Shown in pieces: positions 2 to 58,184 of a stretch of DNA of 64,000 bases. The DNA is from an uncultured Acidobacteriota bacterium (GTDB lineage Bacteria; Acidobacteriota; Vicinamibacteria; Vicinamibacterales; UBA8438): NCBI GenBank assembly GCA_913043225.1, contig CAJWLU010000003.1:64001-128000 (forward strand). The letters are read 5' to 3'. Position 1 is the first letter of the stretch. The number at the start of each line of letters is the position of its first letter. The notes under the pieces were generated by a model, which was not told the DNA's origin, made no database searches, and worked only from the letters and a program-made list of their open reading frames with translations. A program made the translations under genes and the position numbers.

Positions 2-790
2 TTCCCATCGTTTGATGAGAACCTCCGTCAGGCATTCCGGCGTGAGATGGAGCTGTTCGTCGACAGCGTCCTGCGCGGGGACGACAGCGTGCTCGAGCTA
101 CTGACTGCGGAACACACGTTCGTGAACGAGCGGCTCGCCAAGCACTACGGCATTCCCCACGTCTTCGGCAGCCGGTTCCGGCGGATCGAACTCGAGGAGG
201 AGTCGCGCCGGGGGCTACTCGGCAAGGGGGCGATCTTGACGCTGACCTCCTACGCCAACCGCACGTCGCCGGTGCTGCGAGGGAAGTGGGTGCTTGAGAA
301 CCTACTGTCGTCGCCGCCTCCTCCGCCGCCGCCTGATGTCCCGGCGCTTGACGAGACGACCGACGACGGTCGGCCGAGGTCGATGCGTGAGGCGATGGAG
401 CAGCACCGCGCCAACCCGGCGTGCGCCAGCTGTCACGCGCAGATGGACCCGCTCGGGTTCGCGTTGGAGAACTTCGACGCTATTGGCCGCTGGCGGGTCC
501 TGAGCGAGACGGGAAACCCGATCGACGCGAGCGGTCAGTTGCCGAGCGGCACCAGCTTCGAGGGTCCGGCAGGACTCCGTGATCAGATCCTGGCTTCGCC
601 CGACCGGTTCGTCACCACCGTCGTGGACAAGTTGCTGATGTACGCCCTCGGGCGCAACATCGAGGCCCAGGACTACCCGACCATCCGTTCCGTCGTGCGG
701 GATGCCGCGCGCGACCAGTATCAGTTTGCGACCATCGTCAACGGCATCGTCAAGAGCACTCCATTCCAGATGCGAAAGGCCCAGTCATGA
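2..790 (+). CDS. Partial (5'-truncated by window edge) DUF1592/DUF1588/DUF1585 c-type cytochrome protein, cassette copy 1
   Basis: Frame is open from base 2 (FPSFDENLRQAFRREM...). Motifs HTFVNERLAKHYG, RTSPVLRGKW, poly-Pro, CASCH, MDPLGFALENFD and YALGR are shared with the three full-length paralogs. Confidence 0.9.
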   Translation, partial: FPSFDENLRQAFRREMELFVDSVLRGDDSVLELLTAEHTFVNERLAKHYGIPHVFGSRFRRIELEEESRRGLLGKGAILTLTSYANRTSPVLRGKWVLENLLSSPPPPPPPDVPALDETTDDGRPRSMREAMEQHRANPACASCHAQMDPLGFALENFDAIGRWRVLSETGNPIDASGQLPSGTSFEGPAGLRDQILASPDRFVTTVVDKLLMYALGRNIEAQDYPTIRSVVRDAARDQYQFATIVNGIVKSTPFQMRKAQS

Positions 791-2148
791 TCATCTCCAA
801 AATGGCGCTCCCGCGCCGGACGTTCCTGCGTGGCCTCGGGGCGAGCGTGGCGCTGCCGTTGCTTGATGCCATGGTGCCAGCCGCCACCGCGTTGGCCCAG
901 ACGCCCGCCACTCCGGCGCCCCGGCTCGGTTTCGTCTATGTGCCCAATGGGGTCATCCAGGAGCAGTGGGTGCCGGCGGCCACCGGCTCCGGGTTCGAGC
1001 TGTCACCCATCCTGAGCCCACTGAGGCCGGTGCAGGATCGCCTCGTGGTCCTGAGCGGTCTGGCCCATCGTCAGGCCGACTCGTTCGGGGACGGGAACGG
1101 CGACCATCCGCGCGCCACGGCCGTGTGGCTGAGTGGAGTCCATGCCTGGGAACGGAATGGACGACTGGGGCCGACCAGCATCGAACTTGGCGTGACCGCC
1201 GACCAGATCGCGGCCCGGGAGCTCGGTCAGGCCACACCACTTCCATCACTCGAACTGGTGCTCGAGCGGCCGACCGCCATATCGTGCGATTCTGGCGACT
1301 GCTTCTACTCGAACACCATTACCTGGCGTGACGAGACGACGCCGCTCGAGATGGAGCCGCACCCGCGCGTCGTGTTCGAGCGGCTGTTTGGCGACGGCGG
1401 CAGCGCCGCCGACCGCAGAGCTCAGGCGCGTCACTCGGGCAGCATTCTCGACTCGGTGACCGAGGAAGCCCTGAACCTCGAGCGGACGCTGGGGGCCGGC
1501 GACCGGGGAAAACTGGCCGAATATCTCGACTCGGTCCGAGATCTCGAGCAGCGAATCGGCAAAGCCGAAGCCCGCGATGATCAGACCGAGATCGACCTAC
1601 CCGATCGTCCGATTGACATCCCGGAGGACTTCGAGGAATACGCCACACTTATGTTCGATCTGCTCGCCCTGGCCTACCAGGCTGATGTCACCCGAGTGAG
1701 TACGCTGATGATGGCCCGGGAAACCAGCCCGCGGACGTTTCCGCAGATCGGGGTGCCGGACCAGCATCACACCGTGTCGCACCACCGAAACGACCCAGAT
1801 TACATCGCCCGCAAGGCGAAGATCGACACCTACCACATCAGCTTGTTCGGGCGCTTCCTGGAGAAGCTCCGGGCCACCCCTGACGGCGACGGGAACCTGT
1901 TGGACCACTCGATGATCGTCTACGGCGGTGGTATCGGGAATGGCAACCTGCACGAGCACACAAACTTGCCGTGCCTCGTGGCGGGCGGTGGAACCGGACG
2001 GCTTAAGGGCGGGCGGCACCTGGCCTATCCGGAAGACACGCCGATGGCCAACCTGCTATTGACCGTGCTCGACAAGGCCGGGGTTCGTGCCGACAAACTT
2101 GGTGACAGTACAGGGCTCTTGAATACCGCCACGCTAGCGGACGTCTGA
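787..2148 (+). CDS. DUF1552 (HxxSHH) family Tat-exported protein, cassette copy 1
   Basis: LPRRTFLRG twin-arginine motif; YVPNG; GDH; CDSGDC; HHTVSHH; C-terminal GDSTG. ATGA overlap with the upstream gene. Confidence 0.9.
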   Translation: MIISKMALPRRTFLRGLGASVALPLLDAMVPAATALAQTPATPAPRLGFVYVPNGVIQEQWVPAATGSGFELSPILSPLRPVQDRLVVLSGLAHRQADSFGDGNGDHPRATAVWLSGVHAWERNGRLGPTSIELGVTADQIAARELGQATPLPSLELVLERPTAISCDSGDCFYSNTITWRDETTPLEMEPHPRVVFERLFGDGGSAADRRAQARHSGSILDSVTEEALNLERTLGAGDRGKLAEYLDSVRDLEQRIGKAEARDDQTEIDLPDRPIDIPEDFEEYATLMFDLLALAYQADVTRVSTLMMARETSPRTFPQIGVPDQHHTVSHHRNDPDYIARKAKIDTYHISLFGRFLEKLRATPDGDGNLLDHSMIVYGGGIGNGNLHEHTNLPCLVAGGGTGRLKGGRHLAYPEDTPMANLLLTVLDKAGVRADKLGDSTGLLNTATLADV

Positions 2149-2150
2149 TC

Positions 2151-3224
2151 ATGAAGCGCATCATCCTGGTTGAGACAGCGGCAGTGGTGCTACTCGTGGG
2201 GGGCATCGCCGCAGCGCAGGGCGATATCCCGCGCATGGCGAGTGGGAAGCCCGATCTGTCGGGAACCTACGACGCGGCCACACTGACGCCGTTGCAGCGG
2301 CCCACGGGCCTCGGCGAGAAGATGGCGCTGACCGACGAGGAGGCGGCCGAGCTGGCCGAGGGGATGCGGCAGGCGATGGCTGCTGCCAACCAGCCCAGTG
2401 ACCCGAACCGAGGTGCCCCTCCCGATGGCGGCGACGGGTCGCTTGGAGCGTCCGGTAACGTAGGTGGTTACAATGCGTTCTGGATTGACCCAGGGTCTGG
2501 TGCCTATCAGATCGACGGGCAGTGGCGGACCTCCATCCTGATCGATCCCCCCAACGGCCGGTTCCCGCCACGGGCGGCGGGTGCGCCCACCCGGAGCTTC
2601 AGTGGCCGCCAGAACGACGGCACCGCCTACTGGCTCGAGGATGGGCTCGACGCCGAAGGTCCCTACGACAACATGGAGCAGAGGCCCTACGCCGAGCGCT
2701 GCCTGCTCAGTTTCGGGTCCACCTCGGGACCACCGATGCTGCCGTCGCTCTACAACAACTTCAAGCGGATCGTTCAGAGCGAGGACACGGTCATCATCCT
2801 GGCCGAGATGGTGCACGATGCTCGCATTGTCAGGATGAACACCGAGCACGATCCACCGCACATCAAGAAGTGGCTGGGCGATTCGATCGGTTGGTGGGAA
2901 GGCGACACGCTGGTGGTCGAGACAACCAACTTCATCGACCGCCCCGCGTTCAGCCAGGGGACGGGAAGCATGACCGTTACCGAGCGCTTTCGCATGGAGA
3001 GCGCCGGCCAGCTGGTCTACAGCTTCACGGTCGAAGATCAGACGGTGTGGACCCGTCCATTCACCGGAGAGTACGCCTGGCCGCGTAGCCCTAACAAGCT
3101 ATTCGAGTACGCCTGCCACGAGGCGAATTACGCTCTGGAGGGCATCATGAAGGGCGCCCGTCTGCTGGAAGCGGAATTCAGAGGCGAAGAGCCGGAAGGT
3201 GTCGCCAATCCCACCGGCCGCTAG
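2151..3224 (+). CDS. Secreted uncharacterised protein of the 'GKPDLxG...ERC...EYACHE' family
   Basis: Signal peptide (AAAQ); GKPDLSG, TPLQRP, AERCL, WLGDSIGWWEGDTLVVET, FEYACHE. Starts 2 nt after the DUF1552 stop; paralogs at 7235 and 8255. Confidence 0.85.
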   Translation: MKRIILVETAAVVLLVGGIAAAQGDIPRMASGKPDLSGTYDAATLTPLQRPTGLGEKMALTDEEAAELAEGMRQAMAAANQPSDPNRGAPPDGGDGSLGASGNVGGYNAFWIDPGSGAYQIDGQWRTSILIDPPNGRFPPRAAGAPTRSFSGRQNDGTAYWLEDGLDAEGPYDNMEQRPYAERCLLSFGSTSGPPMLPSLYNNFKRIVQSEDTVIILAEMVHDARIVRMNTEHDPPHIKKWLGDSIGWWEGDTLVVETTNFIDRPAFSQGTGSMTVTERFRMESAGQLVYSFTVEDQTVWTRPFTGEYAWPRSPNKLFEYACHEANYALEGIMKGARLLEAEFRGEEPEGVANPTGR

Positions 3225-5636: not shown

Positions 5637-5643
5637 CGAAGAG

Positions 5644-6921: not shown

Positions 6922-7221
6922 AACGTGCTCCCGGCGATTCGTCCGTCCGGACGGTGTTTCGACCGCTGTTACAGCCACCCCGGCTGCGCCCTTGGCCGCG
7001 CGTGACCAGACGAACGACTTGCCGGTCTTGCTCAATCCCCACACCCCGAATCGCCACGCGCGCCTCCAGCCGGCCGACACCTGTGGGCGTCTAGCAGCCA
7101 GAGGAAGGGACGGCGTCTGTGCGGTCACGGTCGGTGGGAGGAGCACGCCGCCGGCAGGCGCGAAGACCAGGCGCGCTCGAATACGCATAGGGGTGTTGTC
7201 CGGCACCTAAGGGTTGGCGCG

Positions 7222-7237
7222 TATAATCGGGCCGATG
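7222..7237 (+). promoter_or_regulatory. -10 element (TATAAT) 7 nt before ATG, probable leaderless start
   Basis: TATAAT at 7222-7227, ATG at 7235, no SD sequence in between. Confidence 0.55.
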
Positions 7238-19672: not shown

Positions 19673-19674
19673 TG

Positions 19675-21252
19675 TTAGGGCTGGTCGGTGGCGCCGAGCG
19701 GGACGTCGCGCAGTCGTTCCTGCACGGTGCCCGCGATTCCGAGACTGGTGTCGGCGCCGAGCCGCGCCAGCAACTCAGCGGTTTCCGGCCAGCTCTGGAA
19801 CTGGAACGACTGCTTGGCTCCCTCCGCCATTCGGTAGGCGGTGCGGCCGCGGAAGTCGCGGGCATCGATGTCGGCACCCTGAGCGACGAGATACTCTACG
19901 ACCTCATTCAGACCACGGAAGGTCGCGCCGTGTAACGCCGTAAAGTCGGCCTCGTTGGTGGCGTTGACGTCCGCCCCCGCCTCTAGCAGGAACGCCACGG
20001 CCGCCTCAGCACTACGCGCCCGCACCCCGCGTGGTTCGCGCGGCGTGTAGGTCGCCTTGCCCAGTCCGGCTGCCGCCATCAACGGGGTGGTGCCGTCGTC
20101 AGTGGCCAGGGTGAGATTGGCGCCGCCGTCAATCAGGGCCTGCAGCACCTCGACGCTGCTCGACTGGAAGCTTGGGATCACGCTGTAGATCAGGCTGGGG
20201 GCGCCATTCATCTCGAAGGCGGCGACCCAGAGCGGCGTGGCGCCGCGCAGATCACCGGTACCCGGAGCAAACGGTTCAAAGGCGCCCTTCTTGGGATAGC
20301 CGATGTAGAACATCAGCATCGCCGAACTCGTGATCCGCGCGTTCGGCTCGGCGCCCCGGGAGAGCAGATCCTGGACGAGGCCAAGCCGGGCGTCGGCGCG
20401 AAGCCGACCGCCTCCGATCGGGCCGTGGCGCCGGGTCCACTCTGAGACCCAGGTCGACACCGAGCCGGCGGCTGCGTGGAGGGCGCTGAAGCCGCCCATC
20501 CAGCTGTTCGCGTCGGCGCCCTCTTCGAGCAGGAAGTGCGCGAATGGCGCTCGGCCTGCTGCGATGGCGAATGCCAGGGCGTGAGTGCCGTCCCCGCTGG
20601 GGGTGTTGACGTCGACGCCTGCCTCGAGGAGCGCTCGACCCATCTCGATGTCACCGGTGCGCGCGGCGAACATCAACGGTGTGAAGCCGGGGTTCGCCTC
20701 GATCGTGGGATCGGCGCCGCGCGCTAGCAGCAGACGCACGATCTTATGGTGGGGTGCCGCCAGCGCCCACATCAGCGCGGTGCTGTTGGTGTCGCGCGTT
20801 ACCGCGTTCACCTGCGCCCGGTGGTCGAGCAGCAGCTGGACTAGCTCGACGTTGCCGGTGTGGGAGGCGGTCATCAGCGGCGTCAGTCCGCTGGTTTGCA
20901 CCGCGGCTGCGTTGGCCCCGGCGTTGAGGAGCGTCGTGGCCATGGCCACGCTCGCGTTCTCGGCGGCCCGCTCCAGCGGGGTCACCCCGTGGTCGTCGGC
21001 CAGGTTTGGGTCGGCTCCGGCCGCCAGCAGGCCAGCTGCCGCGTCGAGAGCGTTCCAGTGTGCAGCCCAGAGCAACCCTGTAGTGCCGTCGGCGCGAGCG
21101 ACGTCGGGGTTGCCCCCCTCGTCGAGCAACGTCTGCACCTCGGCCCATTGCTGGTCGGCGGCAAACTGGACGAGGGCGGGGGTCTGGGCCGTCACCGGCG
21201 TGGCGACCGTGACGACGGCGAGCGAGAGAAGCGCGGAAAGCAGGCGAGGCAT
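19675..21252 (-). CDS. Secreted ankyrin-repeat protein
   Basis: Signal peptide (VTAQ); many GxTPL/TALxxAA...GADxN repeats; divergent from cassette copy 2. Confidence 0.92.
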   Translation of the reverse strand: MPRLLSALLSLAVVTVATPVTAQTPALVQFAADQQWAEVQTLLDEGGNPDVARADGTTGLLWAAHWNALDAAAGLLAAGADPNLADDHGVTPLERAAENASVAMATTLLNAGANAAAVQTSGLTPLMTASHTGNVELVQLLLDHRAQVNAVTRDTNSTALMWALAAPHHKIVRLLLARGADPTIEANPGFTPLMFAARTGDIEMGRALLEAGVDVNTPSGDGTHALAFAIAAGRAPFAHFLLEEGADANSWMGGFSALHAAAGSVSTWVSEWTRRHGPIGGGRLRADARLGLVQDLLSRGAEPNARITSSAMLMFYIGYPKKGAFEPFAPGTGDLRGATPLWVAAFEMNGAPSLIYSVIPSFQSSSVEVLQALIDGGANLTLATDDGTTPLMAAAGLGKATYTPREPRGVRARSAEAAVAFLLEAGADVNATNEADFTALHGATFRGLNEVVEYLVAQGADIDARDFRGRTAYRMAEGAKQSFQFQSWPETAELLARLGADTSLGIAGTVQERLRDVPLGATDQP

Positions 21253-21378
21253 GGGTCCCTCGTTATTGGTTGGAGCTTCCGGCACTATAGCGCAGACTTG
21301 CCGTGGGGGGCACGCTGATCGGCAGGAGCTGAGGTAACATACGCGAGCTACCTCGTCAATCTAGGGATAGGGAGCGCG

Positions 21379-23739
21379 ATGCAGCTGGTATGGCGAACGG
21401 CCGTGCGAAGCGTCTGGACGTTGGGTGTGGCGGTATGTGTCCTCGCCGCCGTCGCACCGGCGCGGGCGCAGCTGGCGACCTCCGACGGCCAGGGGTTGGT
21501 CCAGGACTACTGCGTACGCTGCCACAATGATCGCCGACTCACGGGCGGACTGTCGCTCGAGGGGGTTCAGGCGGACGATCCAACCGCGCACGCGGAGATT
21601 TGGGAGAAGGTCCTCCGGAAGCTGCAGGCCCGCTCCATGCCGCCGGTCGGATCGCCTCGTCCAGACGAGGTTGTTTACGCCCAGGTGATCCGTGCGCTGG
21701 AGCTCGCGATCGATCGCGAGGCGGATGCCACCCCGCGCCCAGGTCGAACGGCCTCTTTCCATCGACTCAGTCGCACCGAGTATCAGCACGCCGTCCGCGA
21801 TCTGCTAGATCTCGAGGTGGACGTGGGTGGCTGGTTGCCGGGAGACGACGCAGCCTATGGCTTCGACAACAACGGCGACGTGCTGTCGATGTCGCCCGTG
21901 CTGCTCGATGCGTATCTCACGGCGGCAAGCCGGATCAGCCGTCTGGCCGTCGGCGATATGTCGGCCGGCGCCGATGTGGCCAGCTATCGGTTCTCGAAGT
22001 CGCTCCTGCAAGAAAACCGGATCGAGGGGCTGCCGTTCGGTTCGCGTGGTGGGGGTGCCGTGCGCCATTACTTCCCGCTGAACGGGGAGTATGTGCTGAA
22101 ACTCGATCTGGCCGGTCCGAGGACGCAGTCCGAGACCATCGAGATTCGCCTCGACGGCGTCAAAGTCGGCGAGGTTGCCTCCAACGCTCGCCCACCCTTT
22201 GGTGGCGAGGCGATAGGCACTCAGGTGCGGATCCAGGTCGAGGCGGGCGCGCATACTCTCGGTGTCGTTTTCCTCAAGAGAATGCTCGCCCCCGAGGGCC
22301 GCTTCCCCGCCTACTTCCCGTGGGCCAACAGTGCGGTCTTCTCGACCACTTTTGGAGCCAAGACGTATCTCCATCTGGACGGGATCGAGATCACGGGGCC
22401 GTTTGAGCCGACCGGTCTCGGCGATACACCGAGTCGTCGCCGCATCTTCAGCTGTCGGCCCGGAGGCGACGTTCAAGCCGAGGTGTGCGCCCGCAGCATC
22501 TTCGAGCGGCTGGCCCGCCGCGCCTACCGACGCCCAGCGACTGAGGACGACCTCGAGGTGCTGCTCAGCTTCTACCGCGACGGGCGCGCCGAGGGCGGGA
22601 GCTTCGACGATGGCGTCCGTGTTGCCCTCAGCCGTCTTCTGGTCGACCCCGACTTCTTGTATCGGGCCGAGCTGGATCCGCCGGGCGTCACCCTGCCGTA
22701 TCGGTTGTCCGATCTAGAGCTGGCATCCCGGCTGTCGTTCTTCCTGTGGAGCAGCCTGCCGGACGACGAGCTGCTCTCAGTGGCTGAAGAGGGACGGCTG
22801 TCGTCGCCTGCGGAGTTGGCAACTCAGGTACGACGGATGCTGGCAGACGAACGGGCCACGGCACTCGTCTCCGATTTCGCCGCACAGTGGCTATTTCTGC
22901 GCAATCTGCGGATGGTCTCACCGGACCAGTTCCAGTTCCCGGAGTGGGACGACGACCTCCGGGCGGCGATGGCGCGTGAGACTGAGCTCTTCCTCGATCA
23001 CCAGAGACGCGAGAATCGTCCGGTGGCCGAGCTGCTGATCGCCGACTACACGTTCGTCAATGAGCGCCTGGCTCGCCACTACGGGCTCGACGACATCTAC
23101 GGCACGCAGTTCCGACAGGTGGAGCTCTCGAACCCGCGACGAGCTGGCCTGCTCGGGCACGCGAGCATCCTGACGGTAACGTCGATGCCGAATCGCACGT
23201 CGCCGGTGCTCAGGGGGAAGTGGTTGCTCGAGAATCTGCTGGGCATGCCGCCGCCCGCGCCGCCGCCTGACATACCCGAGCTGCCAGAGAACGAGCGGGG
23301 CGACGCGCCACGTTCGATTCGCGAGCGGCTCGAGCAGCATCGCGAGAACCCGGTCTGCGCGAGCTGCCACGCCACGATGGATCCGCTGGGCTTCGCGTTG
23401 GAGCCGTTCGACGCCATCGGACGTTGGCGCACGCGCGATGATGGTCTGCCGGTGGATGCGCGCGGCGCACTGGTCGATGGCACGGAGATTGACGGCCCTC
23501 GTGGACTGCGCGAGATGCTCGTCACCCGACAGGACGAGTTCGTGCGGACGTTCATCGAGAAGCTGATGACCTTCGCGCTCGGTCGTGGCGTCGAGTACTA
23601 CGACATGCCGGCCGTCCGGAAGATCCTGCGCGAGACCGCCGATCAGGGTCACACGTGGGAGTCGGTGATTCTCGGCATCGCGAACAGCGTACCGTTCAAG
23701 ATGCGGGAGCGACGCGACGGTGCCATCCCGGTCAACTGA
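21379..23739 (+). CDS. Diheme DUF1587/1595/1592/1588/1585 protein, cassette copy 2
   Basis: Signal peptide; CVRCH...MPP; RLSRTEY; ELASRLSFFLWSS; CASCH. Confidence 0.92.
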   Translation: MQLVWRTAVRSVWTLGVAVCVLAAVAPARAQLATSDGQGLVQDYCVRCHNDRRLTGGLSLEGVQADDPTAHAEIWEKVLRKLQARSMPPVGSPRPDEVVYAQVIRALELAIDREADATPRPGRTASFHRLSRTEYQHAVRDLLDLEVDVGGWLPGDDAAYGFDNNGDVLSMSPVLLDAYLTAASRISRLAVGDMSAGADVASYRFSKSLLQENRIEGLPFGSRGGGAVRHYFPLNGEYVLKLDLAGPRTQSETIEIRLDGVKVGEVASNARPPFGGEAIGTQVRIQVEAGAHTLGVVFLKRMLAPEGRFPAYFPWANSAVFSTTFGAKTYLHLDGIEITGPFEPTGLGDTPSRRRIFSCRPGGDVQAEVCARSIFERLARRAYRRPATEDDLEVLLSFYRDGRAEGGSFDDGVRVALSRLLVDPDFLYRAELDPPGVTLPYRLSDLELASRLSFFLWSSLPDDELLSVAEEGRLSSPAELATQVRRMLADERATALVSDFAAQWLFLRNLRMVSPDQFQFPEWDDDLRAAMARETELFLDHQRRENRPVAELLIADYTFVNERLARHYGLDDIYGTQFRQVELSNPRRAGLLGHASILTVTSMPNRTSPVLRGKWLLENLLGMPPPAPPPDIPELPENERGDAPRSIRERLEQHRENPVCASCHATMDPLGFALEPFDAIGRWRTRDDGLPVDARGALVDGTEIDGPRGLREMLVTRQDEFVRTFIEKLMTFALGRGVEYYDMPAVRKILRETADQGHTWESVILGIANSVPFKMRERRDGAIPVN

Positions 23740-23785
23740 CCGGAGCGAGTGAACATCAAGGGTCGGGTAGCTACAGGAGTCCCTC

Positions 23786-25138
23786 ATGTACATCACTAGC
23801 AAGGCGTTGCCACGACGCACGGTGCTCCGTGGCCTGGGCGCCACCATCGGGTTGCCGCTCCTCAACAGCATGGTGCCGGCGATGACCGCTCTGGCGCGGA
23901 CCGCCGCCGATCCGGTCAGGCGTTTCGCGACCGTGTATGTCGGTAATGGCGCCGCGGTTGGCTATTTCACCCCCGAGCAGGAGGGGGCTGGCTACGAGCT
24001 GACACCGATTCTTGAGCCGTTGGCACCGATGCGCGATCGGGCGCTGGTGCTCACCGGCATCGACAATCCACCCGCACTAGCCCTCGAGGGCGAGCCACGT
24101 GGTGGACATGGCCGGATCCCGTCTGCGTTCATGAGCGGCATTCACGCCAAGCCCACCATCGGCGCCGACTATCAGTCCGGCATCACGATCGATCAGATCG
24201 CTGCCAACCATCTTGGAGACGACACCCAGCTGCGGTCTCTCGAGCTGTCCATGGACTCGCCGGAGTTTGGCGGGACCTGCGACACGGGTTTTGCCTGCGT
24301 CTACACCAACACGCTGTCCTGGCGCGGACCGACCACGCCGCAGCCGATGCAGAACAACCCGCGGCTGGTGTTCGAGCGCATGTTCGGCGAGGGTGGGACC
24401 ACCGATCCTGCCGTGCGCCTGGCCCGCTGGCGGCAGCGGGCCAGCATTCTCGACTCGGTGCGAGACAAGGTCGACGGGTTGGGAGGCACCCTGGATCCGG
24501 AGGACCGAGCCAAGCTCGACGAGTATCTCGAGGCGATTCGCAACATTGAGCGGCGCATCCAACTGGCCGAGGAGCAGAGCGACCGGGAGATTCCCGAGGT
24601 GATCCAGCCGGCCGGGGTGCCTGCGACTTTTGCCGAGCACGCGGAGCTGATGTTTGATCTTCAGGTGCTGGCCTTCCAGGCCGACCTCACGCGCGTTACC
24701 ACGTTCATGCTCGCTCGCGAGCTGAGCGGCCGCGCCTACCCCGAGATCGGGGTATCTGAGGGCTTCCATGCCATTTCGCATCACGGCAACAACCCGGAGA
24801 AGATCGCTGACCAGGCCAAGATCAACGCCTATCACACGGCTAAGGTCGTCTACTTCCTTGAGCGGCTGCAGTCGGTGCCTGACGGCGACGGGACGCTACT
24901 TGACAACAGTCTGGTGCTGTTCGGCAGCGGGATGGGAAACAGCAACGAGCACGATCCACGTCAGCTTCCGCTAGTCCTGGCCGGCGGGGTGGGCGGTCGT
25001 CTGAAGGGTGGACGCCACATTCGCTATCCGTCGGGTACGAGGCTGACCAACCTGCACATGACGTTGCTCGCCAAGCTCGGCGTCCCGGTCGAGTCGATCG
25101 GCGACAGTACCGGCCATCTCGAGGTGGGTCTGCTGTGA
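23786..25138 (+). CDS. DUF1552 (HxxSHH) Tat protein, cassette copy 2
   Basis: LPRRTVLRG; CDTGFAC; HAISHH; GDSTG; AGGAG RBS. Confidence 0.92.
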   Translation: MYITSKALPRRTVLRGLGATIGLPLLNSMVPAMTALARTAADPVRRFATVYVGNGAAVGYFTPEQEGAGYELTPILEPLAPMRDRALVLTGIDNPPALALEGEPRGGHGRIPSAFMSGIHAKPTIGADYQSGITIDQIAANHLGDDTQLRSLELSMDSPEFGGTCDTGFACVYTNTLSWRGPTTPQPMQNNPRLVFERMFGEGGTTDPAVRLARWRQRASILDSVRDKVDGLGGTLDPEDRAKLDEYLEAIRNIERRIQLAEEQSDREIPEVIQPAGVPATFAEHAELMFDLQVLAFQADLTRVTTFMLARELSGRAYPEIGVSEGFHAISHHGNNPEKIADQAKINAYHTAKVVYFLERLQSVPDGDGTLLDNSLVLFGSGMGNSNEHDPRQLPLVLAGGVGGRLKGGRHIRYPSGTRLTNLHMTLLAKLGVPVESIGDSTGHLEVGLL

Positions 25139-26679
25139 GCCGTCTGCGCACGAGACTGATCGCGTTGGCGTTGGCCGGGGTCGGTCTAGCCTCGGGTGCG
25201 CGAGCGGCCGTCGACGCGCCACTGGTCGAGGCAGCTTCTCGCGGCGACGCGGGGGCGGTCCGAGTGCTGCTCGACGAGGGAGCGGATCCGGACGAACGCC
25301 AGGGTGATGGCGCCACGGCGTTGCATTGGGCCGTCCACCGGGGCGATGTCTCGATGGTTGAGACGCTTCTGGCGACCGGCGCCACAGTAGACGCCGTCAA
25401 CGAGCTGGAGGTGACGCCGCTGCTCCTCGCCGCGTCGAACGGGCAGGTCGCGGTGGTTGATCGACTACTGGCTGCCGGCGCAGACCCGGAGGGTGGCATA
25501 ACAGACCGCGAGCGTCCCCTCATGCGCGCGGCGTGGGTCGGTAGCACGGCCGTGGTGCGGGCGCTGCTCGACGCTGGCGCCGATCCGAACGGGATGGAGC
25601 CGGCGCGTCAGCAGACTGCGCTCATGTGGGCCGTATCCGAGCGCCATCCCGACGTGGTCCAGCTCCTGCTCGATCGTGGCGCGGACGTCGCCGCTGCCAC
25701 GGTGACGCATCGGACTGGGCGGGCGGCCACACGTGACATCGTAGGCTACACGCCGTTGCTCTTCGCGGCGCGCGTAGGCGATGCCGAGTCACTAAGGCTA
25801 CTGATCGATTTCGGGGCGGATCCCAACGCCGCGTCGAGCGACGGGATGAGCGCGCTGATTCTGGCCACCGTGCGCGGTTATCCGGATGTTGCCATGCAGC
25901 TTCTCGACGCCGGCGCCGATCCGAACGCGGCGGATCCTGGCTATTCGGCTCTGCACTGGGCGGCAGGCTGGTGGGAGACCACACTCACCACCACCGACTT
26001 CCGTCCGGACCGCGAAGGCAACGACGAGTGGAACAGCCTGCCCGGGTTGACCGAAGGGAAGGCCGAGCTGGTCGCGGCGCTCCTGGCTACGGGGGCCGAT
26101 CCGAACTTGCCGATGGAGCGGACGCCACCCAGAGCGGGCGCCACCCGGAATCCCAGCATGCCCGAGCTGCGCGGCGCCACCCCGTATCTGCTGGCCGCCG
26201 CGGCCGGCGACGCGGAGGTGATGCGGCTGCTGGCGGGTGCAGGGGCGGATCTGACGCTGACTACCGACGCCGGCGCTACCCCGTTGATGGCGGCGGCCGG
26301 TTTTGGCCGAATGCTCGGTGAGAACACCGTCGACGAGGAGCGTATTATCGAGGCTGCTCGCCTCGCGCTCGAGCTTGGGGCCGACCTCAGCGCGACCGAC
26401 GAAGTGGAGAACACGGCTTTGCACTACGCGGCGTATCATCGGCTGACGTCACTCGTCGGGCACCTGGTCGAGCAGGGGGCCGTGCTGGGGCAGCGGAATA
26501 AGTTCGGCGAAACGCCGCTTTGGTTGTCTGAGCTCGCGATTCAGTTTTACGGCGGCGGGACATACCAGATCGTGCCCACGGTGACCGGTGATCTCTTGCG
26601 TACCCTAGGCGCCGATCCCACGACGCCGTTCTACGATCGGGCCCGCCCTCGCGACTGGCCCGATCTCCAGCTTCAGTAG
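25135..26679 (+). CDS. Secreted ankyrin-repeat protein, third gene of cassette copy 2
   Basis: GTGA overlap with the DUF1552 stop; signal peptide; multiple ankyrin repeats. Confidence 0.92.
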   Translation: MSRLRTRLIALALAGVGLASGARAAVDAPLVEAASRGDAGAVRVLLDEGADPDERQGDGATALHWAVHRGDVSMVETLLATGATVDAVNELEVTPLLLAASNGQVAVVDRLLAAGADPEGGITDRERPLMRAAWVGSTAVVRALLDAGADPNGMEPARQQTALMWAVSERHPDVVQLLLDRGADVAAATVTHRTGRAATRDIVGYTPLLFAARVGDAESLRLLIDFGADPNAASSDGMSALILATVRGYPDVAMQLLDAGADPNAADPGYSALHWAAGWWETTLTTTDFRPDREGNDEWNSLPGLTEGKAELVAALLATGADPNLPMERTPPRAGATRNPSMPELRGATPYLLAAAAGDAEVMRLLAGAGADLTLTTDAGATPLMAAAGFGRMLGENTVDEERIIEAARLALELGADLSATDEVENTALHYAAYHRLTSLVGHLVEQGAVLGQRNKFGETPLWLSELAIQFYGGGTYQIVPTVTGDLLRTLGADPTTPFYDRARPRDWPDLQLQ

Positions 26680-26688
26680 CTCATCCCG

Positions 26689-27009
26689 ATGAGTCTCGTG
26701 CGTCCCTTGCTGCACGGCGTGCTGCATGTGGCCGCGCCAGTCGTCCTGGCCTTTGTCGCGTGGCGCTCGACCTGGCGTCGGGCCGCCGCAATCATGCTGA
26801 CCACGCTCCTGGTCGATCTCGACCACTTGCTGGCCGATCCCATCTACGATTCGGACCGCTGCAGCATCGGGACCCACCTGCTGCACACTCCTCTGCCGAT
26901 CGTTGTCTATGTCCTGCTGGCCAGCTGGCCGAAGACCCGTCTGGTCGGGGTCGGGCTGTTGCTTCATATGCTGCTCGACGGTGTTGACTGTTGGTGGGTG
27001 GGGCACTGA
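26689..27009 (+). CDS. Small membrane protein, DUF6122-like
   Basis: VDLDHLLADPIYDSDRCSIGTHLLH motif; hydrophobic. Confidence 0.75.
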   Translation: MSLVRPLLHGVLHVAAPVVLAFVAWRSTWRRAAAIMLTTLLVDLDHLLADPIYDSDRCSIGTHLLHTPLPIVVYVLLASWPKTRLVGVGLLLHMLLDGVDCWWVGH

Positions 27010-27111
27010 GCCGCCCGCCCCTGCCCGTTCGGCACCGCTGACCGAGGGTGCCAGCCGGGGAGAGTGTCCACGATCGGTTGACACCGGTCGCCGCTGCGCG
27101 AGAGCCTTCCG

Positions 27112-29156: not shown

Positions 29157-29232
29157 GTTGCCCGCCTCCCCGGTGTTGCGCCCGGTGGTGGCGGTATACT
29201 GAAACCCGACGGTACAACAGCAGGAGGACGTC

Positions 29233-31632: not shown

Positions 31633-31666
31633 TGTCGGCCGAAAGCAAAAAACTCCGAGTGCAACC

Positions 31667-33016: not shown

Positions 33017-33462
33017 TCGCCGTCCGCCGTGTCGCCGCGCTGCTCGTTGCGGGGCTGGGGTTGGCCGCGGCGGCGGCCGCCCAGACCGCCTATCCGATTT
33101 TCACTCCGGACCATCTCGACGCGACGATGAAGACGCTGGGGCCGAATGTGGCCGGAGTGCACGCGGCGATCAGGGCTGGCGACATGACATTGGCCAAGGA
33201 GCGGGCCATCCGTAGCCGAGAGCAACTCGCGACCACCATAACGTTCTGGCGTGATCGGGGCCGTGATGATGCGGTCCGGATTCTGCGAGTCACGTTGCGG
33301 GCGTTCGACACACTCGATACCGCTTTGTCCCAGACGCCGGCCGACCCGGCCGCGGTGGATGCCGCCAACGGAACCGTAGGCGGTGGGTGCACCGCTTGCC
33401 ACGCGATCTACAGGCAGGGTGAAGATGGAGATTATCGGTTGAACGAGGCCGCGCTACGATGA
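33013..33462 (+). CDS. Small secreted cytochrome c'-like (class II) protein, third gene of cassette copy 3
   Basis: Signal peptide; helical sequence; C-terminal CTACHAIYR; ATGA overlap. Confidence 0.8.
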   Translation: MIAVRRVAALLVAGLGLAAAAAAQTAYPIFTPDHLDATMKTLGPNVAGVHAAIRAGDMTLAKERAIRSREQLATTITFWRDRGRDDAVRILRVTLRAFDTLDTALSQTPADPAAVDAANGTVGGGCTACHAIYRQGEDGDYRLNEAALR

Positions 33463-34739: not shown

Positions 34740-34748
34740 GGGTGCGCG

Positions 34749-39503: not shown

Positions 39504-39606
39504 GTCGAGCGTCCGTCGAACCTTTTGAGGCGCTATGATTGTCTTCATTGAGAGTTGTGCGACGCTGGCGACGTTTGTTCACCGCCTTTCATTGACGGAG
39601 AGATTC

Positions 39607-52839: not shown

Positions 52840-55197
52840 ATGCGCCTACTCACGTTTACGGCGGTCTTGTCGCTGGTCGCGGCTGGAGGAGGCCTTGCCC
52901 AGGTGCTCCCTGATCGGGCCCTGCTTGACCGCTACTGCATGAGCTGTCACAGCGACCAGTCGCGACAGGGTGACCTCTCACTGGCCGACATCGACCTCGC
53001 CCGGCCAGCGGCGTATGCCCCAGTCCTCGAGAAGGTGGCTCGGAAGCTTCGCGCCGGTCTGATGCCGCCTCCTGGTCGACCCCGGCCAGAAGCCGATGTC
53101 GTCGATCAGTTCATCCTGGATATCGAGACTTCGATAGACGTTGCCGCAGCCAGCGAGCCGAACCCCGGGCGGCCGGTGCTACATCGCCTGAACCGCACGG
53201 AATACGCCAACGTAGTCAGGGATCTGCTGGGCTTGGAGGTACGCGCCGAGACGCTCCTGCCGCCCGATGACATGAGTCAGGGCTACGACAACATGTCGGA
53301 CGTGCTGACCGTATCGCCGGCGTTACTCGAGAGCTACATTTCGGCGGCGGGCAAGATCAGCCGTCTCGCGATCGGTGATCCGGATGTCAACCCGGCGGTT
53401 GAGACCTACGTGGTGCCCCAGGCGGTATCCCAGATGACTCACGTGCCGGGGACGCCGTTCGGCACCAGGGGTGGGCTGGCTGTCACGCACAATTTCCCCG
53501 CGGATGGGAAGTACGCGTTCCGGTTGTCGTTCTATTACTCAAGCATCGGTCCAATCTTCGGAGACAACATTCCCGCCGAAGGTGAGCAGATCGAGATCGC
53601 GATCGATGGCGAGCGGGTTGCGCTGCTCGACTTCGATCGGAAGCTCAAGACGACCGAGGATCTGCGCACGCCGCCGATAGCGATCACGGCCGGACCGCAT
53701 CAGCTGTCTGCCGCCTTTATCAAGCGCGCCGCCGGACCGGTGCAGGATTTCGTGATGCCGTTCGACCGCGTGTTGGCCGACCTCTCCACCGGTCATTTTC
53801 CCGGCCTGACTGGCCTGCCGCACCTCCGGAATCTCGGGATCGACGGTCCGTATGACGTGACCGGCGTCAGCGAGACGCCCAGTCGTGGCCGCGTGCTGAG
53901 CTGTCGACCCGCAACGCCAGAGGCGGAGCTCGGGTGTGCTCGGGAGATTGTGGGGCGTCTCGCGCGACGAGCCTTTAGGCGCCCGGTCGCGGACACCGAT
54001 CTCGATCGACTCCTAACGCTTTATGCCGAAGGGCGCGACGCTGGCGGTTTCGACGCAGGCATCCGACTGGCCCTCCAGGCGGTGCTTGCCGATCCCGAGT
54101 TCGTCTTCCGCTTCGAACGGACGCCATCTGATGCCGAGGTAGGCGAGAGCTACCAGATTAGTGACCTGGAGCTAGCGTCCAGGTTGTCCTTTTTCCTGTG
54201 GAGCAGCGTCCCGGATGAGGTGCTGCTTGCGGTTGCCGATGAGGGACGGCTGTCCGACCCGGCTGAATTGGAGCGGCAGGTACGCCGCATGCTCGACGAC
54301 TCGCGCGCCGAAGCGTTGTCGACGAGCTTTGCGTCACACTGGCTCCGTTTGCAGAACCTCAGCGACGCACATCCGGATGTCTATCTGTTCCCCAATTGGG
54401 ACGAGAACCTAAACCGATCGATGCGGCGTGAGACCGAGATGCTGTTCGACCACGTCGTGCGGGCGGATCGAAGTCTGCTGGAGCTGCTCGACGCCGACTA
54501 CACCTTTGTGAACGAGCGGCTGGCCGGACACTACGGGATCCCGAATGTCGTGGGCTCACGTTTTCGGCGCGTCGAGGTCGCCGCGCCGGAACGCCGAGGC
54601 CTGCTCGGTCACGCGAGCATCTTGACGTTGACCTCGGTGTCCAACCGCACGGCGCCGGTCATCCGGGGCGCGTGGGTGCTCGACGTGTTGCTAGGGACGC
54701 CGCCGCCGCGACCCCCGGCCGACGTCCCTCCTCTCGAGGAGAACGAGACGCACCAGGTACTGACATCGGTTCGGGATCGGGTGATCGCCCACCGGGCGAA
54801 TCCGGCCTGTGCGTCGTGCCACAACGTGATGGATCCGGTTGGGTTCGCGCTCGAGAACTTCGACGCGGTTGGGGCCTGGCGGACCATGGACGGACCGGAC
54901 CGGGTCGACCCGTCGGGCACGTTGTACGACGGGACGCCGGTTGACGGGCCCAGCGCCCTCCGCGGATTCTTGCTGGCCAACCATGATCTGTTTCTGACGA
55001 ATTTCGCACGCAACCTGTTGATGTACGCGACTGGTCGAGTCTTCCAGCCCTACGACATGCCGGCTGTACGGGAAGTGGTGTCGGAGGCTGCTGCGGCCGA
55101 CCATCGCTTCTCTGCCTACGTCCTGGGGGTGGTGAACAGTACACCCTTCAGGATGCGCCGTGCTGACCAGGTGCCAGATGACGTGGCGGTGCAATGA
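52840..55197 (+). CDS. Diheme DUF1587/1595/1592/1588/1585 protein, cassette copy 4
   Basis: Signal peptide; CMSCH...MPP; RLNRTEY; ELASRLSFFLWSS; CASCH. Confidence 0.92.
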   Translation: MRLLTFTAVLSLVAAGGGLAQVLPDRALLDRYCMSCHSDQSRQGDLSLADIDLARPAAYAPVLEKVARKLRAGLMPPPGRPRPEADVVDQFILDIETSIDVAAASEPNPGRPVLHRLNRTEYANVVRDLLGLEVRAETLLPPDDMSQGYDNMSDVLTVSPALLESYISAAGKISRLAIGDPDVNPAVETYVVPQAVSQMTHVPGTPFGTRGGLAVTHNFPADGKYAFRLSFYYSSIGPIFGDNIPAEGEQIEIAIDGERVALLDFDRKLKTTEDLRTPPIAITAGPHQLSAAFIKRAAGPVQDFVMPFDRVLADLSTGHFPGLTGLPHLRNLGIDGPYDVTGVSETPSRGRVLSCRPATPEAELGCAREIVGRLARRAFRRPVADTDLDRLLTLYAEGRDAGGFDAGIRLALQAVLADPEFVFRFERTPSDAEVGESYQISDLELASRLSFFLWSSVPDEVLLAVADEGRLSDPAELERQVRRMLDDSRAEALSTSFASHWLRLQNLSDAHPDVYLFPNWDENLNRSMRRETEMLFDHVVRADRSLLELLDADYTFVNERLAGHYGIPNVVGSRFRRVEVAAPERRGLLGHASILTLTSVSNRTAPVIRGAWVLDVLLGTPPPRPPADVPPLEENETHQVLTSVRDRVIAHRANPACASCHNVMDPVGFALENFDAVGAWRTMDGPDRVDPSGTLYDGTPVDGPSALRGFLLANHDLFLTNFARNLLMYATGRVFQPYDMPAVREVVSEAAAADHRFSAYVLGVVNSTPFRMRRADQVPDDVAVQ

Positions 55198-55242
55198 CCA
55201 GAGATCTGGGAAGATAGAGGGGAAGACGCGGGAGAAAGCGGC

Positions 55243-56616
55243 ATGTACATCACACGGAAGCACATCTCGAGACGTAAAGCGCTACGTGGTGTCGGGGTTA
55301 CCCTGGCGCTGCCGTGGCTCGAAGCCATGATGCCGGCGCAGACGGCGATTCGTGGGTCGGCGGCCCAGCCTCGTACCCGGTTTGCCGCGCTTGAGATGGT
55401 GCACGGGTCGGCGGGCAGCACGGGTGAAGGCACCAGGCTGCACTACTGGTCGCCTCGCACCGTCGGTCGGAATTTCGAGACCACTCCGATCCTGCGTCCC
55501 CTCGAGCCGTATCAGGACTATGTGACGATCGTTAGCCACACGGACATCGCTCCCGCCACGGCACAGACCGAGGCCGAGGCGGGCGCCGACCACACCCGTT
55601 CGTCGGCCGCGTTCTTGACGTCGGCGCACGCCAAGATGACCGAGGGCGCCGACATCTACAACGGGACGTCGGTAGATCAGCTCTATGCCAGGGCCCATGG
55701 TCAGGACACACCGCTGCCGTCGATCCAGCTTTGCGTGGAGGATGTGGGCTCGCTGACGGGCGCCTGCGGTTACGGCTACAGCTGCGTCTATGCCAACACG
55801 ATCTCCTGGTCGTCTCCGACCACGCCGCTCCCGATGGAGCGGGACCCACGCGTGGTCTTCGAGCGGTTGTTCGGCGACGGTGCGACGCCCGAGCAGCGGA
55901 TGCAGCGACGGCAGGCCAACGCGAGCATCCTCGACGCCATTCTCGGGAAGGTCGCCGAGCTGCAGCGTGACTTGGGCGCTGCGGACCGGGCCCGCCTCAG
56001 CGACTATCTCGAGGATGTTCGAGAGATCGAGCGCCGCATAGAGCTGGTCGAGGGGCAAAATGCGACTCGGCGGGGTGTCGATCTGCCGGACGCCCCGGTT
56101 GGGGTGCCGGATGCCTGGACCGATCACATCCGCATGATGTTCGACCTGCAGGTCTTGGCGTTCACGACCGACGTGACCCGGGTGTCGGCGTTCAAGATGG
56201 GGCGTGACGTTAGTTCACGGGTCTACACCGAGAGCGGCGTGGAGACGCCATTCCACTCGCTGTCCCACCACGGCAACCGGTCGGACAAGCTGGCGGAGTT
56301 CGCCAAGCTGAACGAGTTCCACGTCGATCAGGTCGCCTACTTCATCGATCGATTGAAGAATACGCCCGACGGCGATGGCAACCTGCTGGATCACTCGATG
56401 GTGCTCTACGGCAGCCCCATGGGCGATGGTAGCGTCCACAATCATCTGCGGGTTCCGCTGTTCCTGGCCGGTCACGCCAATGGCCAGCTGAAGGGCAACT
56501 CTCATGTGCTGTGCGAGGACGGGACGCCGATGGCGAACCTGCTGCTGACGATGATGCACAAGCTCGAAGTGGGCGTTGACAGCGTCGGCGACAGTACCGG
56601 CGAGATCGCGATCTGA
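55243..56616 (+). CDS. DUF1552 (HxxSHH) Tat protein, cassette copy 4
   Basis: ISRRKALRG; ADH; CGYGYSC; HSLSHH; GDSTG. Confidence 0.92.
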   Translation: MYITRKHISRRKALRGVGVTLALPWLEAMMPAQTAIRGSAAQPRTRFAALEMVHGSAGSTGEGTRLHYWSPRTVGRNFETTPILRPLEPYQDYVTIVSHTDIAPATAQTEAEAGADHTRSSAAFLTSAHAKMTEGADIYNGTSVDQLYARAHGQDTPLPSIQLCVEDVGSLTGACGYGYSCVYANTISWSSPTTPLPMERDPRVVFERLFGDGATPEQRMQRRQANASILDAILGKVAELQRDLGAADRARLSDYLEDVREIERRIELVEGQNATRRGVDLPDAPVGVPDAWTDHIRMMFDLQVLAFTTDVTRVSAFKMGRDVSSRVYTESGVETPFHSLSHHGNRSDKLAEFAKLNEFHVDQVAYFIDRLKNTPDGDGNLLDHSMVLYGSPMGDGSVHNHLRVPLFLAGHANGQLKGNSHVLCEDGTPMANLLLTMMHKLEVGVDSVGDSTGEIAI

Positions 56617-56618
56617 CG

Positions 56619-58184
56619 ATGAAGAGCCTGGCGCACCTTTTGTGCACCGCGGCGTTCGTCGGTGGGTTGGTCCTGCCGGCGGCCGCGGCTGACGCGCCTG
56701 TCGCCGATGCGGCGCAGGAGGCGGACCTGACGACGGTGCTCGCCCTGATCGGGCAAGGGGCCGACGTCAACGTTTCTCAAGGCGATGGCATGACCGCCAT
56801 GCACTGGGCGGCATTCCACGATGACTTGGAGTTGGCCCGGGCGCTCCTGTCGGTCCGGGCAGACGTCGATCGGGGCACCCGCGTGGGTGGGTTGCAGCCG
56901 CTCTGGATGGCGGCGACCAATGGTAGCGCGGAGATGATCCGCGTACTGGTTGACGCTGGCGCCAACGTCAATGCTGCAAATGGCACCGGGGCTACACCGC
57001 TCATGGCCGCGGCCATGTCTGGCAGCGTCGACGCTGTAGTGCTCTTGCTCGACGAAGGCGCGTTCGCCAACGCACGCGAGACGGCGAACGGCCAGACCCC
57101 GCTCATGTTCGCTGCCTGGGAAGATCGTGCAGACGTCATCCGCTTGCTCATCGACCGAGGCGCCCATGTGGGGTTGACGTCGTGGGTGGTGTCGATGGCC
57201 GAGCAACAGTACGACTCCGACGGGAATCTTCTGCCGACGCGTCGCCCGCGGGCGCCGGGCGGGAACTCGGTTATGGGTGGGATGACCGCCCTTCTGTTCG
57301 CCGCTCGAGATGGTCATCTGGCTGCGGTCGAGGCCCTGGTCGAGGGGGGCGTGAATGTGGACCAGGTGGCCGGGAGCGAAGGCTCCAGCCCCATGGTGAT
57401 CGCGATCGCCAACGGGCACTACACGGTGGCGAAGTATTTGCTCGATGCCGGGGCAGACCCCAACGTGGAGAACGTGGATGGGCTAGCCCCGCTATACGCC
57501 ACGATCAACATGCGGTTCGCGCCGGTGTCGTGGGCCCCGAATCCCCGCACGGATCAGGAACGGGTAGACGCCGTGACTCTGGTGGCGGCACTGCTCGATG
57601 CCGGGGCAGATCCCGATGCTCGGATCGCCCGTGGGTTGTGGTTTAGTCCCACCTCGCACAATCGGCTCTGGATCAACCCGGCCGGTGCCACCCCGTTCTG
57701 GCGTGCTGCCCAGGCCAGTGACGTGGAGTCGATGCGGTTGCTGCTTCGCGCCGGTGCCGATCCGCATCTTGCCACCACCGATGGCACCACCCCGCTGATG
57801 GTGGCGTCGGGCATCGGGTGGCGCGGCAACTTCAGCCAGAACGCGCTAGGTGCCTGGATGGACGCGGTGCGCTTCCTGGTGGAATTGGGCGCGGATGTAA
57901 CGGCGAGCGACCGTAGCGGCTACACCGCGCTGCACGGGGCCGCCGCGCTCGGCGATAACGAGATGGTCGAGTATCTCGTGTCGCACGGGGCCGGCGTAGA
58001 TGCCATTGACCGGCGCGGTAACTCTCCGGCCGACATGGCGTTTGGCCCGTCGAGATTCTTCATTCCCAAGCCGAAAACTGTCGAGTTGCTGGTTCGACTC
58101 GGCTCGCCGTTCCAGGACAAGTGCCGATCCGACCAGTGCGTGGACGGGAAGTTCTTCGGGGGTGCGTCAACCACTCCGCGCTGA
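56619..58184 (+). CDS. Secreted ankyrin-repeat protein, third gene of cassette copy 4
   Basis: Starts 2 nt after the DUF1552 stop; signal peptide; many ankyrin repeats; C-terminal CRSDQC. Confidence 0.92.
   Translation: MKSLAHLLCTAAFVGGLVLPAAAADAPVADAAQEADLTTVLALIGQGADVNVSQGDGMTAMHWAAFHDDLELARALLSVRADVDRGTRVGGLQPLWMAATNGSAEMIRVLVDAGANVNAANGTGATPLMAAAMSGSVDAVVLLLDEGAFANARETANGQTPLMFAAWEDRADVIRLLIDRGAHVGLTSWVVSMAEQQYDSDGNLLPTRRPRAPGGNSVMGGMTALLFAARDGHLAAVEALVEGGVNVDQVAGSEGSSPMVIAIANGHYTVAKYLLDAGADPNVENVDGLAPLYATINMRFAPVSWAPNPRTDQERVDAVTLVAALLDAGADPDARIARGLWFSPTSHNRLWINPAGATPFWRAAQASDVESMRLLLRAGADPHLATTDGTTPLMVASGIGWRGNFSQNALGAWMDAVRFLVELGADVTASDRSGYTALHGAAALGDNEMVEYLVSHGAGVDAIDRRGNSPADMAFGPSRFFIPKPKTVELLVRLGSPFQDKCRSDQCVDGKFFGGASTTPR

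Follow-up and report, generated by a model that had tools for sequence, protein, structure and literature searches.

Across a 64,000-nucleotide stretch of an uncultured Acidobacteriota bacterium (contig CAJWLU010000003.1, positions 64,001 to 128,000; the whole stretch is called the window below), four copies of one gene pair encode a diheme DUF1592/PSCyt3 protein (A) and, directly behind it, a DUF1552 (PF07586) protein (B). The pair is an ancient, expanded, ankyrin-bearing variant of a gene pair that is known and unexplained. We propose, with a probability of roughly 0.55, that A and B form a periplasmic heme-coupled metal oxidoreductase in which B would hold a metal in a site of four histidines (His4) and the substrate would be selected by a variable insert of A that resembles a carbohydrate-binding module (CBM).

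Four gene pairs in the window and their genome-wide expansion

A sequence-only reading of the window had described the four pairs, always A before B, and Pfam domains confirmed them at the positions given here together with their immediate neighbours. Signal peptides were judged by eye.

2..790, + strand: A1, C-terminal third (PSD4 end, PSCyt3 with CASCH, PSD2; Pfam), gene start upstream of the window
787..2148, + strand: B1, DUF1552, twin-Arg signal, four conserved His
2151..3224, + strand: YACHE-family protein beside copy 1, from a separate 88-copy family and probably no subunit of the cassette
19675..21285, - strand: ankyrin-repeat protein, likely signal peptide, divergent from A2
21379..23739, + strand: A2, 786 aa, likely Sec signal, cytochrome c domain (C45xxC48H49, M87), PSD3, predicted CBM-like beta-sandwich insert at residues 193-345, PSD5-PSD4-PSCyt3 (C660xxC663H664)-PSD2
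23786..25138, + strand: B2, 450 aa, DUF1552, predicted alkaline-phosphatase/sulfatase fold, reference numbering H108, H328, H332, H389
25135..26679, + strand: ankyrin-repeat protein, likely signal peptide, 4-nt overlap with B2
29233..31632, + strand: A3, 799 aa, two CxxCH
31667..33016, + strand: B3, DUF1552, start ATG 31667
33013..33462, + strand: cytochrome c'-like protein, one CxxCH (PF01322 E 1e-4, below the Pfam cut-off)
52840..55197, + strand: A4, 785 aa, two CxxCH
55243..56616, + strand: B4, DUF1552
56619..58184, + strand: ankyrin-repeat protein, likely signal peptide, 2 nt behind B4

The domain series PSD3-PSD5-PSD4-PSCyt3-PSD2 scored above Pfam cut-offs in all three full-length window copies of A, and PF07586 was found in 4/4 copies of B. 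The motifs described earlier are present as well: an N-terminal CxxCH...MPP and a C-terminal CASCH in A, and in B a twin-Arg (RR) motif, a His in GDH, GGH, GDH or ADH, a Cys pair, HxxSHH and a late His. In copy 4 the twin-Arg motif takes an atypical form, SRRKAL. Only the start of B3 had to be moved, from 31484 to the ATG at 31667, with the coordinates of the pair unchanged. A1 is truncated by the window edge alone, and the whole gene (G000:C3:62424-64790, on the contig where the window is G000:C3:64001-128000) has both heme motifs. Relative to the first aligned copy, identities are 42-49% for B and 49-54% for A, so the four copies are old paralogues. Contigs from RNA libraries of 4 marine runs covered 21-28 of the 30 bins of 19000-34000 at 90-99% likeness, a coverage by contigs that cannot show transcription or operon structure.

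Profile searches in all six frames of the genome (3.85 Mb, 55 contigs, 96% complete) returned 32 A and 26 B genes, together 2.9% of its bases. Every one of the 26 B genes lies directly behind an A gene, at a spacing of -4 to 90 nt, and this adjacency is therefore not due to chance. Median pairwise identity is 48% within each family; two CxxCH motifs occur in 31/32 A genes and an RR motif in 26/26 B genes. The earlier view that A and B form a unit is strengthened by this linkage and by FastTree phylogenies of the 26 pairs, which have 5-6 of 20-23 splits in common (5/23 with all pairs, 6/21 after removal of two long branches), compared with a mean of 0.25-0.28 and a maximum of 3 in 2000 relabelled trees. 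Patristic distances of A and B correlate with rho 0.71-0.78. Deep branches of both trees are poorly resolved, and one well-supported pair of splits conflicted in 2/3 runs.

Six A genes have no adjacent B. All six group in one clade (support 1.0) with the A gene at C8:74098, which has a B, giving a clade of seven A genes with 63% median identity and a single adjacent B (C8:74098-106630, C35:20718-23168, C37:106-2607). This grouping fits a shared B, and we infer that one B may serve several A proteins of the clade. One of the six genes ends at a contig edge, so that its B may fall outside the assembly.

PF07586 was detected in 30/151 sampled genomes of the phylum and in 0/14 control genomes. Within the order, B occurs in 37/61 genomes, and three family-level relatives have at least 25-27 matches. 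Clusters at 50% identity that match B at E up to 0.001 number 29,128, and the PSCyt3/DUF1552 pair is thus, in environmental bacteria, a large protein system still to be explained. An NCBIfam search gave no family for A or B, and searches of PDB sequences with A and B profiles gave nothing significant. Among acidobacterial B proteins the twin-Arg region (residues 8-32, RRxxLRGxGxxxALPxLxxMxPA) is unusually conserved, which could point to a dedicated chaperone or to a signal that stays uncleaved as an anchor.

The pair had been put forward as an undescribed system. It has in fact been published: He et al. (2017; PMC5615132) report a Group III PSCyt3/PSD4 gene beside DUF1552, with carbohydrate-binding add-ons, and PSCyt genes near sulfatases, and describe the pair as being of unknown function. 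The domains and the adjacency are those of the window pair, which differs in its acidobacterial genome, its 26 pairs in 3.85 Mb, its ankyrin partner and its CBM-like insert. The passages of He et al. on this pair give neither a fold nor a metal site for DUF1552. The idea of a heme wire joined to an enzyme exported by twin-arginine translocation (Tat) also has a precedent, since Kamneva et al. (2012; PMC3542564) proposed a cytochrome plus a Tat enzyme for the sister module of DUF1501 with PSCyt1/PSCyt2/PSD1. What stands of the claim is that we found no assigned function. In the literature searched, which was judged mostly by titles and covered few subscription journals, there was no paper that assigned DUF1552 a fold or metal site or linked it to an ankyrin partner or to Cbp2D; one DUF1552 gene has been reported as stress-induced (PMC2754498).

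The DUF1501 module resembles A-B in pairing a Tat protein with a cytochrome partner as a proposed enzyme and electron carrier. B and DUF1501 are homologous (hhalign prob 82-94%, E 1e-5 to 2e-8), and H108 and H389 of B fall on His in the alignment; the core of A, compared with the DUF1501 partner proteins, gave E 0.011 and 0.044, values at which homology is neither established nor dismissed. The two modules differ in their Pfam families and motifs (WDxH, EFGR and GRDH in the DUF1501 module). The genome itself contains this sister system, with five DUF1501 genes beside partners bearing two CxxCH motifs and two beside heme-less partners (C1:87467, C1:242424, C8:118489, C9:107728, C22:33271, C14:58759, C1:32582).

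Predicted structures of B and A

An AlphaFold 2 (AF2) model of B built from 150 sequences had a pLDDT of 90.6, and B is predicted to adopt the alkaline-phosphatase/sulfatase fold. The top VIA match was sulfatase 7stt (Z 17.1, root-mean-square deviation (rmsd) 3.8, 268 residues aligned), ENPP7 followed with Z 16.8 and rmsd 3.3, and nearly all 50 rows of the VIA list belong to the alkaline phosphatase superfamily (Z 13-17, rmsd 3.3-5.9, 227-274 residues aligned). Foldseek linked the model to the same superfamily at E 9e-6; identities in the Foldseek and VIA matches were 6-15%.

In sulfatases the Cys of CxPSR is the nucleophile, whereas DD/DG and SDHG supply metal ligands. We compared B with these motifs using profile templates of 9 sulfatase rows (3 of them mis-picked open reading frames), 6 NPP rows and 9 DUF1501 rows (2 mis-picked), from which loci of genome G024 were excluded. 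H108 of B was aligned by hhalign with the CxPSR Cys, although weakly (prob 4%, E 0.0094). It opens a helix, and the spacing of the nucleophile motif is kept (H-x8-T-G versus C-x-P-S-R-x4-T-G). The Asp after strand 1 (DD/DG) gives way to N, H or M, followed by an invariant Gly, and GSGM stands in place of SDHG. By motif order and secondary structure, HxxSH and H389 fall at the places of the NPP DxxGH and late His; the profile alignment to NPP, with its small template, was not significant (E 0.43).

B therefore resembles the superfamily (S1 sulfatases, NPP, PafA) in predicted fold and in the position of its site residues, and departs from it in having His in place of the Ser/Thr/Cys nucleophile, in loss of the second-metal ligands, in an apparent change of the first-metal Asp to His (HxxxH for the NPP DxxxH) and in its fixed cytochrome partner. 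Formylglycine sulfatases S1 have C/S-x-P-x-R, DD and SD(H/N)G, whereas B has His without PxR, N/H/M-G and GSGM. Two-metal NPP and alkaline phosphatases have a Ser/Thr nucleophile, DG and the second-metal ligands of SDHG, and B keeps none of these. We rejected an ordinary sulfatase or phosphatase as a description of B.

The four histidines are conserved well beyond the window. H108, H328, H332 and H389 occur in 148, 150, 150 and 149 of 150 alignment rows, in 40/40 acidobacterial proteins and, at each position, in 56/57 of a gammaproteobacterial and plasmid group. In contrast, H327, H333 and the Cys pair are lost from this latter group, the Cys pair being found in only 115/150 rows and in no gammaproteobacterial protein. 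A six-His binuclear site was therefore rejected, as was the Cys pair as core metal ligand. The gammaproteobacterial group has S-D/E at the SDHG position (acidic in 54/57). The sequence-only proposal that B is a metal-loaded catalytic subunit thus gains a structural basis in the predicted fold and the four conserved His, while its Cys pair drops out. The economical reading of the model is a single putative His4 metal site without a hydrolytic nucleophile.

A was modelled with a pLDDT of 89.5. Its N-terminal domain has the motif set of a His/Met-type cytochrome c, with C45, C48, H49 and M87 in 135/136 rows. The C-terminal CxxCH is invariant (136/136 and 73/73 rows). M667 is not fixed, being Ile in 12/36 acidobacterial and 35/37 other rows; a His lies 5-6 residues before the motif in 36/36 acidobacterial and ~33/37 other rows. 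The CxxCH motifs, the likely signal peptide and the maturation genes of the genome suggest that A belongs to the c-type cytochrome class; the genome encodes three PF01578 (cytochrome c assembly) proteins, TatC and a heme-copper oxidase subunit. The insert at 193-345 is predicted to be a beta-sandwich resembling CBM6/35/36 (Z ~10, fold search with the model). It has a median identity of 26% among 24 paralogues versus 50-61% for the core domains, and substrate choice may reside in this fast-evolving part. For the helical core there was no clear structural match in full-length fold searches, which the beta-sandwich insert filled so that the core was barely tested, and only Atlas leads under 0.9. 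A co-fold of A2 356-780 with B2 40-450, heme and two Zn, without ankyrin, scored 0.01 (mark 0.32); with A present only in part, this speaks neither for nor against binding.

Cbp2D-type relatives, proposed mechanism and alternatives

The core of A is shared with Cbp2D-type proteins, to which sequence comparison establishes homology. Cbp2D has the architecture CBM2-X158-FN3-X183-DUF1587-X132, with a CBM26 form in Pseudoalteromonas sp. Bsw20308; X183, a c-type cytochrome of the His/Met type, is able to donate electrons to lytic polysaccharide monooxygenases (LPMOs), covalent heme attachment being demonstrated for the X183 of Cbp2D only (PMC8981238). X132 has no known characterised homologue (PMC10916295). 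A tblastn search with the A2 core reached a 'starch-binding protein' of Pseudoalteromonas sp. Bsw20308 (E 8e-37) that contains CBM26, a glucose/sorbosone dehydrogenase-like domain, cytochrome c and all five PSD/PSCyt3 domains, and the next gene is DUF1552. We matched this protein to its table row in PMC8981238 by organism and architecture rather than by accession. A2 is also 28% identical over 365 aa to a Cbp2D-type protein of Cellvibrio mixtus (E 9e-33).

In five Cellvibrio/Catenovulum genomes a DUF1552 gene stands directly after 22/22 PSD4 genes. In the four of these loci that were examined in full, a CBM2-YceI gene comes first, then a CBM2-YceI-cytochrome-PSD gene and then DUF1552, and the DUF1552 proteins keep the four His; the heme domain in one Cellvibrio locus matches the Cbp2D X183 (PDB 7b21, E 1.3e-18). 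Cbp2D, Cbp2E and other X183-DUF1587-X132 proteins thus resemble A in their series of cytochrome c, DUF1587 and helical CxxCH core and in the four-His DUF1552 next door. A differs in having an internal beta-sandwich instead of CBM2, YceI (X158) and FN3, and the Cbp2D-type loci had no ankyrin; the proteins are of the same family and not orthologues. A search for long relatives of A gave no CBM2/YceI fusion among the best 120. DUF1552 does not occur in the searched text and supplements of PMC8981238, PMC10916295 and PMC12542752, and as far as these go the Cbp2D papers do not appear to treat the DUF1552 gene as a partner. From its gene neighbourhood, DUF1552 is likely to be an overlooked catalytic partner of Cbp2D-type proteins.

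By gene order in relatives, CJA_2617 of Cellvibrio japonicus would be the DUF1552 gene. CJA_2617 is up together with cbp2D and cbp2E (log2 2.2, 2.3, 2.7; Table S2 of PMC12542752). The same study reports that mutants with cbp2D lost in frame show a lag on filter paper, and that deletion of cbp2D in a strain already without the LPMO and three further genes stops growth on insoluble cellulose altogether; its authors propose direct cleavage by Cbp2D/E (PMC12542752).

In the mechanism that we propose, B would be exported by Tat and A by Sec. B likely binds one transition-metal ion through its four conserved His, as motifs and predicted fold suggest, and A likely passes electrons via its two hemes between this metal and the respiratory chain, while its insert would hold the substrate near B. 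Redox coupling is supported by the position of 26/26 B genes behind A, by the 22/22 PSD4 genes followed by DUF1552, and by cytochrome neighbours and fusions in relatives (the Sphingobium run A-B-cytochrome c'-cytochrome b561, and the Cellvibrio A protein fused to CBM2 and YceI). For the direction of electron flow we tentatively favour heme to metal to O2 or H2O2, by which sugars or further dissolved organics would be attacked oxidatively in the manner of an LPMO, because of the fusions to quinone-binding YceI or dehydrogenase-like domains and the b561 neighbour; a dehydrogenase feeding the respiratory chain seems somewhat less likely. The boldest form of the proposal, which we regard as possible but speculative, is that DUF1552 is a redox enzyme of the alkaline-phosphatase/sulfatase fold with a His4 Fe or Cu centre and a diheme partner, oxidatively cleaving glycans or other organics in thousands of clusters, with 26 substrate-specific versions here, and that it would be the missing catalytic subunit behind the LPMO-independent cbp2D cellulose phenotype. 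If the redox reading is true, the alkaline-phosphatase superfamily would gain a new chemistry, and oxidative polysaccharide breakdown possibly a new route. With its four His on a predicted sulfatase fold and the genetically tractable cbp2E-cbp2D-DUF1552 locus of Cellvibrio, the redox reading is a concrete and testable hypothesis.

Several points weigh against an oxidoreductase. We know of no redox member of this fold, whose known members are hydrolases or transferases. The metal, hemes and activity of A-B are predicted from sequence and models, the clustering of the four His depends on mapping motifs onto the predicted fold, and the sulfatase profile alignment behind H108 is weak (prob 4%, E 0.0094) and was made with templates containing mis-picked rows. 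A beta-sandwich match at Z 10 is no demonstration of sugar binding, and BLAST alignments to Cbp2D-type proteins skip the insert, which is absent from them. The neighbours of A-B in this genome are not mainly glycan genes, and sulfatases are few (6 matches). The CBM2 or YceI parts of Cbp2D could account for its phenotype, and the YceI and dehydrogenase-like fusions and the b561 neighbour could be electron sinks. A Teredinibacter pair of glucose/sorbosone dehydrogenase-like domains showed neither binding of pyrroloquinoline quinone (PQQ) nor glucose dehydrogenase activity (PMC10916295), which weakens both the argument from a built-in electron source and the preferred direction of the electrons.

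The fold itself suggests that B could be a group-transfer enzyme, that is, a one-metal phospho- or sulfo-esterase or transferase with His108 as nucleophile and A as redox switch, scaffold or substrate-binding partner. His108 sits exactly at the nucleophile position of a fold of hydrolases, the acidic residue at the gammaproteobacterial SDHG position would suit such a role, PSCyt genes lie near sulfatases (PMC5615132), and three ankyrin-free copies in relatives have GH31 or GH106 genes next to them. We nevertheless consider this unlikely, as neither the second-metal ligands nor the substrate-binding Arg of CxPxR is kept in the acidobacterial group, and it leaves unexplained both the tie of every examined B to a CxxCH protein and the cytochrome c', b561 and YceI neighbours. 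Those acidobacterial ankyrin-free pairs were seen in relatives L196, L197, L198 and L217, beside GH31 (two), GH106 and an esterase/gluconolactonase gene.

Catalysis might instead take place at the second heme of A, a peroxidase- or MauG-like centre in a novel helical domain, with B and ankyrin as maturation or metal-delivery factors. The invariant C-terminal CxxCH without a fixed Met ligand, the helical core without a clear structural match and the six A genes lacking an adjacent B all fit such a centre. Yet the His 5-6 residues before the motif could be the sixth ligand, B keeps an enzyme fold with an invariant four-residue core across phyla, and the orphan A genes, which share a clade with a B-bearing A, fit a shared B; we hold this centre to be quite unlikely. 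Many diverged paralogues with a variable binding-type insert, ankyrin partners suggestive of a protein-protein relay and a His-rich site would also be expected of a periplasmic sensor or metal-handling system (redox or ligand sensing, or metal reduction and uptake). The loci read show no recurrent membrane receptor, transporter or regulator next to the pairs, however, and Cbp2D deletion gives a catabolic growth phenotype (PMC12542752), which makes a non-catabolic role the least probable of the three.

Neighbouring genes of the pairs and of the window

The gene behind B had been described as an interchangeable third subunit, and the close spacing on which this was based is correct (2-nt gaps at copies 1 and 4, 4-nt overlaps at copies 2 and 3). 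We rejected the interpretation, since ankyrin is a regular neighbour and the YACHE protein belongs to an independent family. Ankyrin genes accompany 21/26 pairs (11 behind the pair, 5 ahead of it in the same orientation, 5 divergent, 1 convergent), where ~0.3 would be expected by chance, and 22/23 long ankyrin proteins of the genome flank an A-B pair. Within or next to the window they stand at copies 1, 2 (two) and 4, and copy 3 has no flanking ankyrin; the copy 1 gene lies just beyond the window edge (C3:60679-62292), and the divergent gene at 19675-21285 beside copy 2 had been overlooked in the earlier list.

Among relatives, counted at one best locus per genome and within at most 9.5 kb of sequence (less at five loci, where the contig ended), ankyrin was found in 13/20 loci of the order and 15/20 of the rest of the phylum, compared with 0/32 in gammaproteobacteria and 1/4 on plasmids. 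Because of this difference between acidobacterial and gammaproteobacterial loci, ankyrin is a regular but clade-limited partner. It is likely a clade-specific assembly factor or cap with no catalytic part.

The cytochrome c' gene behind B3 recurs in Sphingobium herbicidovorans, where plasmid pMSHV (L117:6707-10853) carries DUF1592, DUF1552, cytochrome c' and then cytochrome b561 in one run. The DUF1592 protein of this locus has no N-terminal cytochrome Pfam match, and a TonB receptor and an AraC regulator lie nearby. S. herbicidovorans can be cultured and could serve as a model of the cytochrome c' variant of copy 3.

YACHE genes stand alongside 4/26 pairs (~1.3 expected) and directly behind B at only 2. 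The YACHEGN-motif family comprises 88 copies of likely secreted proteins of ~340 aa, 83 of them with a CHE-type motif; members in the window lie at 2151-3224, 7214-8155 and 8255-9283. It had no Pfam or NCBIfam match, and Atlas gave unnamed clusters at 0.97. The family is a larger unexplained expansion than the A-B cassette.

Other genes of the window include two at 39535-40926 (+) and 48398-49840 (-), whose products each have an N-terminal CxxCH cytochrome domain and a likely signal peptide, together with His/Met motifs reminiscent of copper type II monooxygenases. One of the two had a weak Cu2_monoox_C match (E 0.024, below the cut-off), and a PDB sequence search with the other returned nothing; from their motifs, heme-fed copper monooxygenases are possible. 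Divergent from A4, a gene at 51444-52736 (-) encodes a 430-aa protein with one CxxCH and no Pfam or NCBIfam match. An epoxide hydrolase gene and a twin-Arg glyoxalase-family gene follow copy 3 (33459-35822), and a xanthine-dehydrogenase-type molybdoenzyme with a twin-Arg 2Fe-2S subunit occupies the window end (60288-64000).

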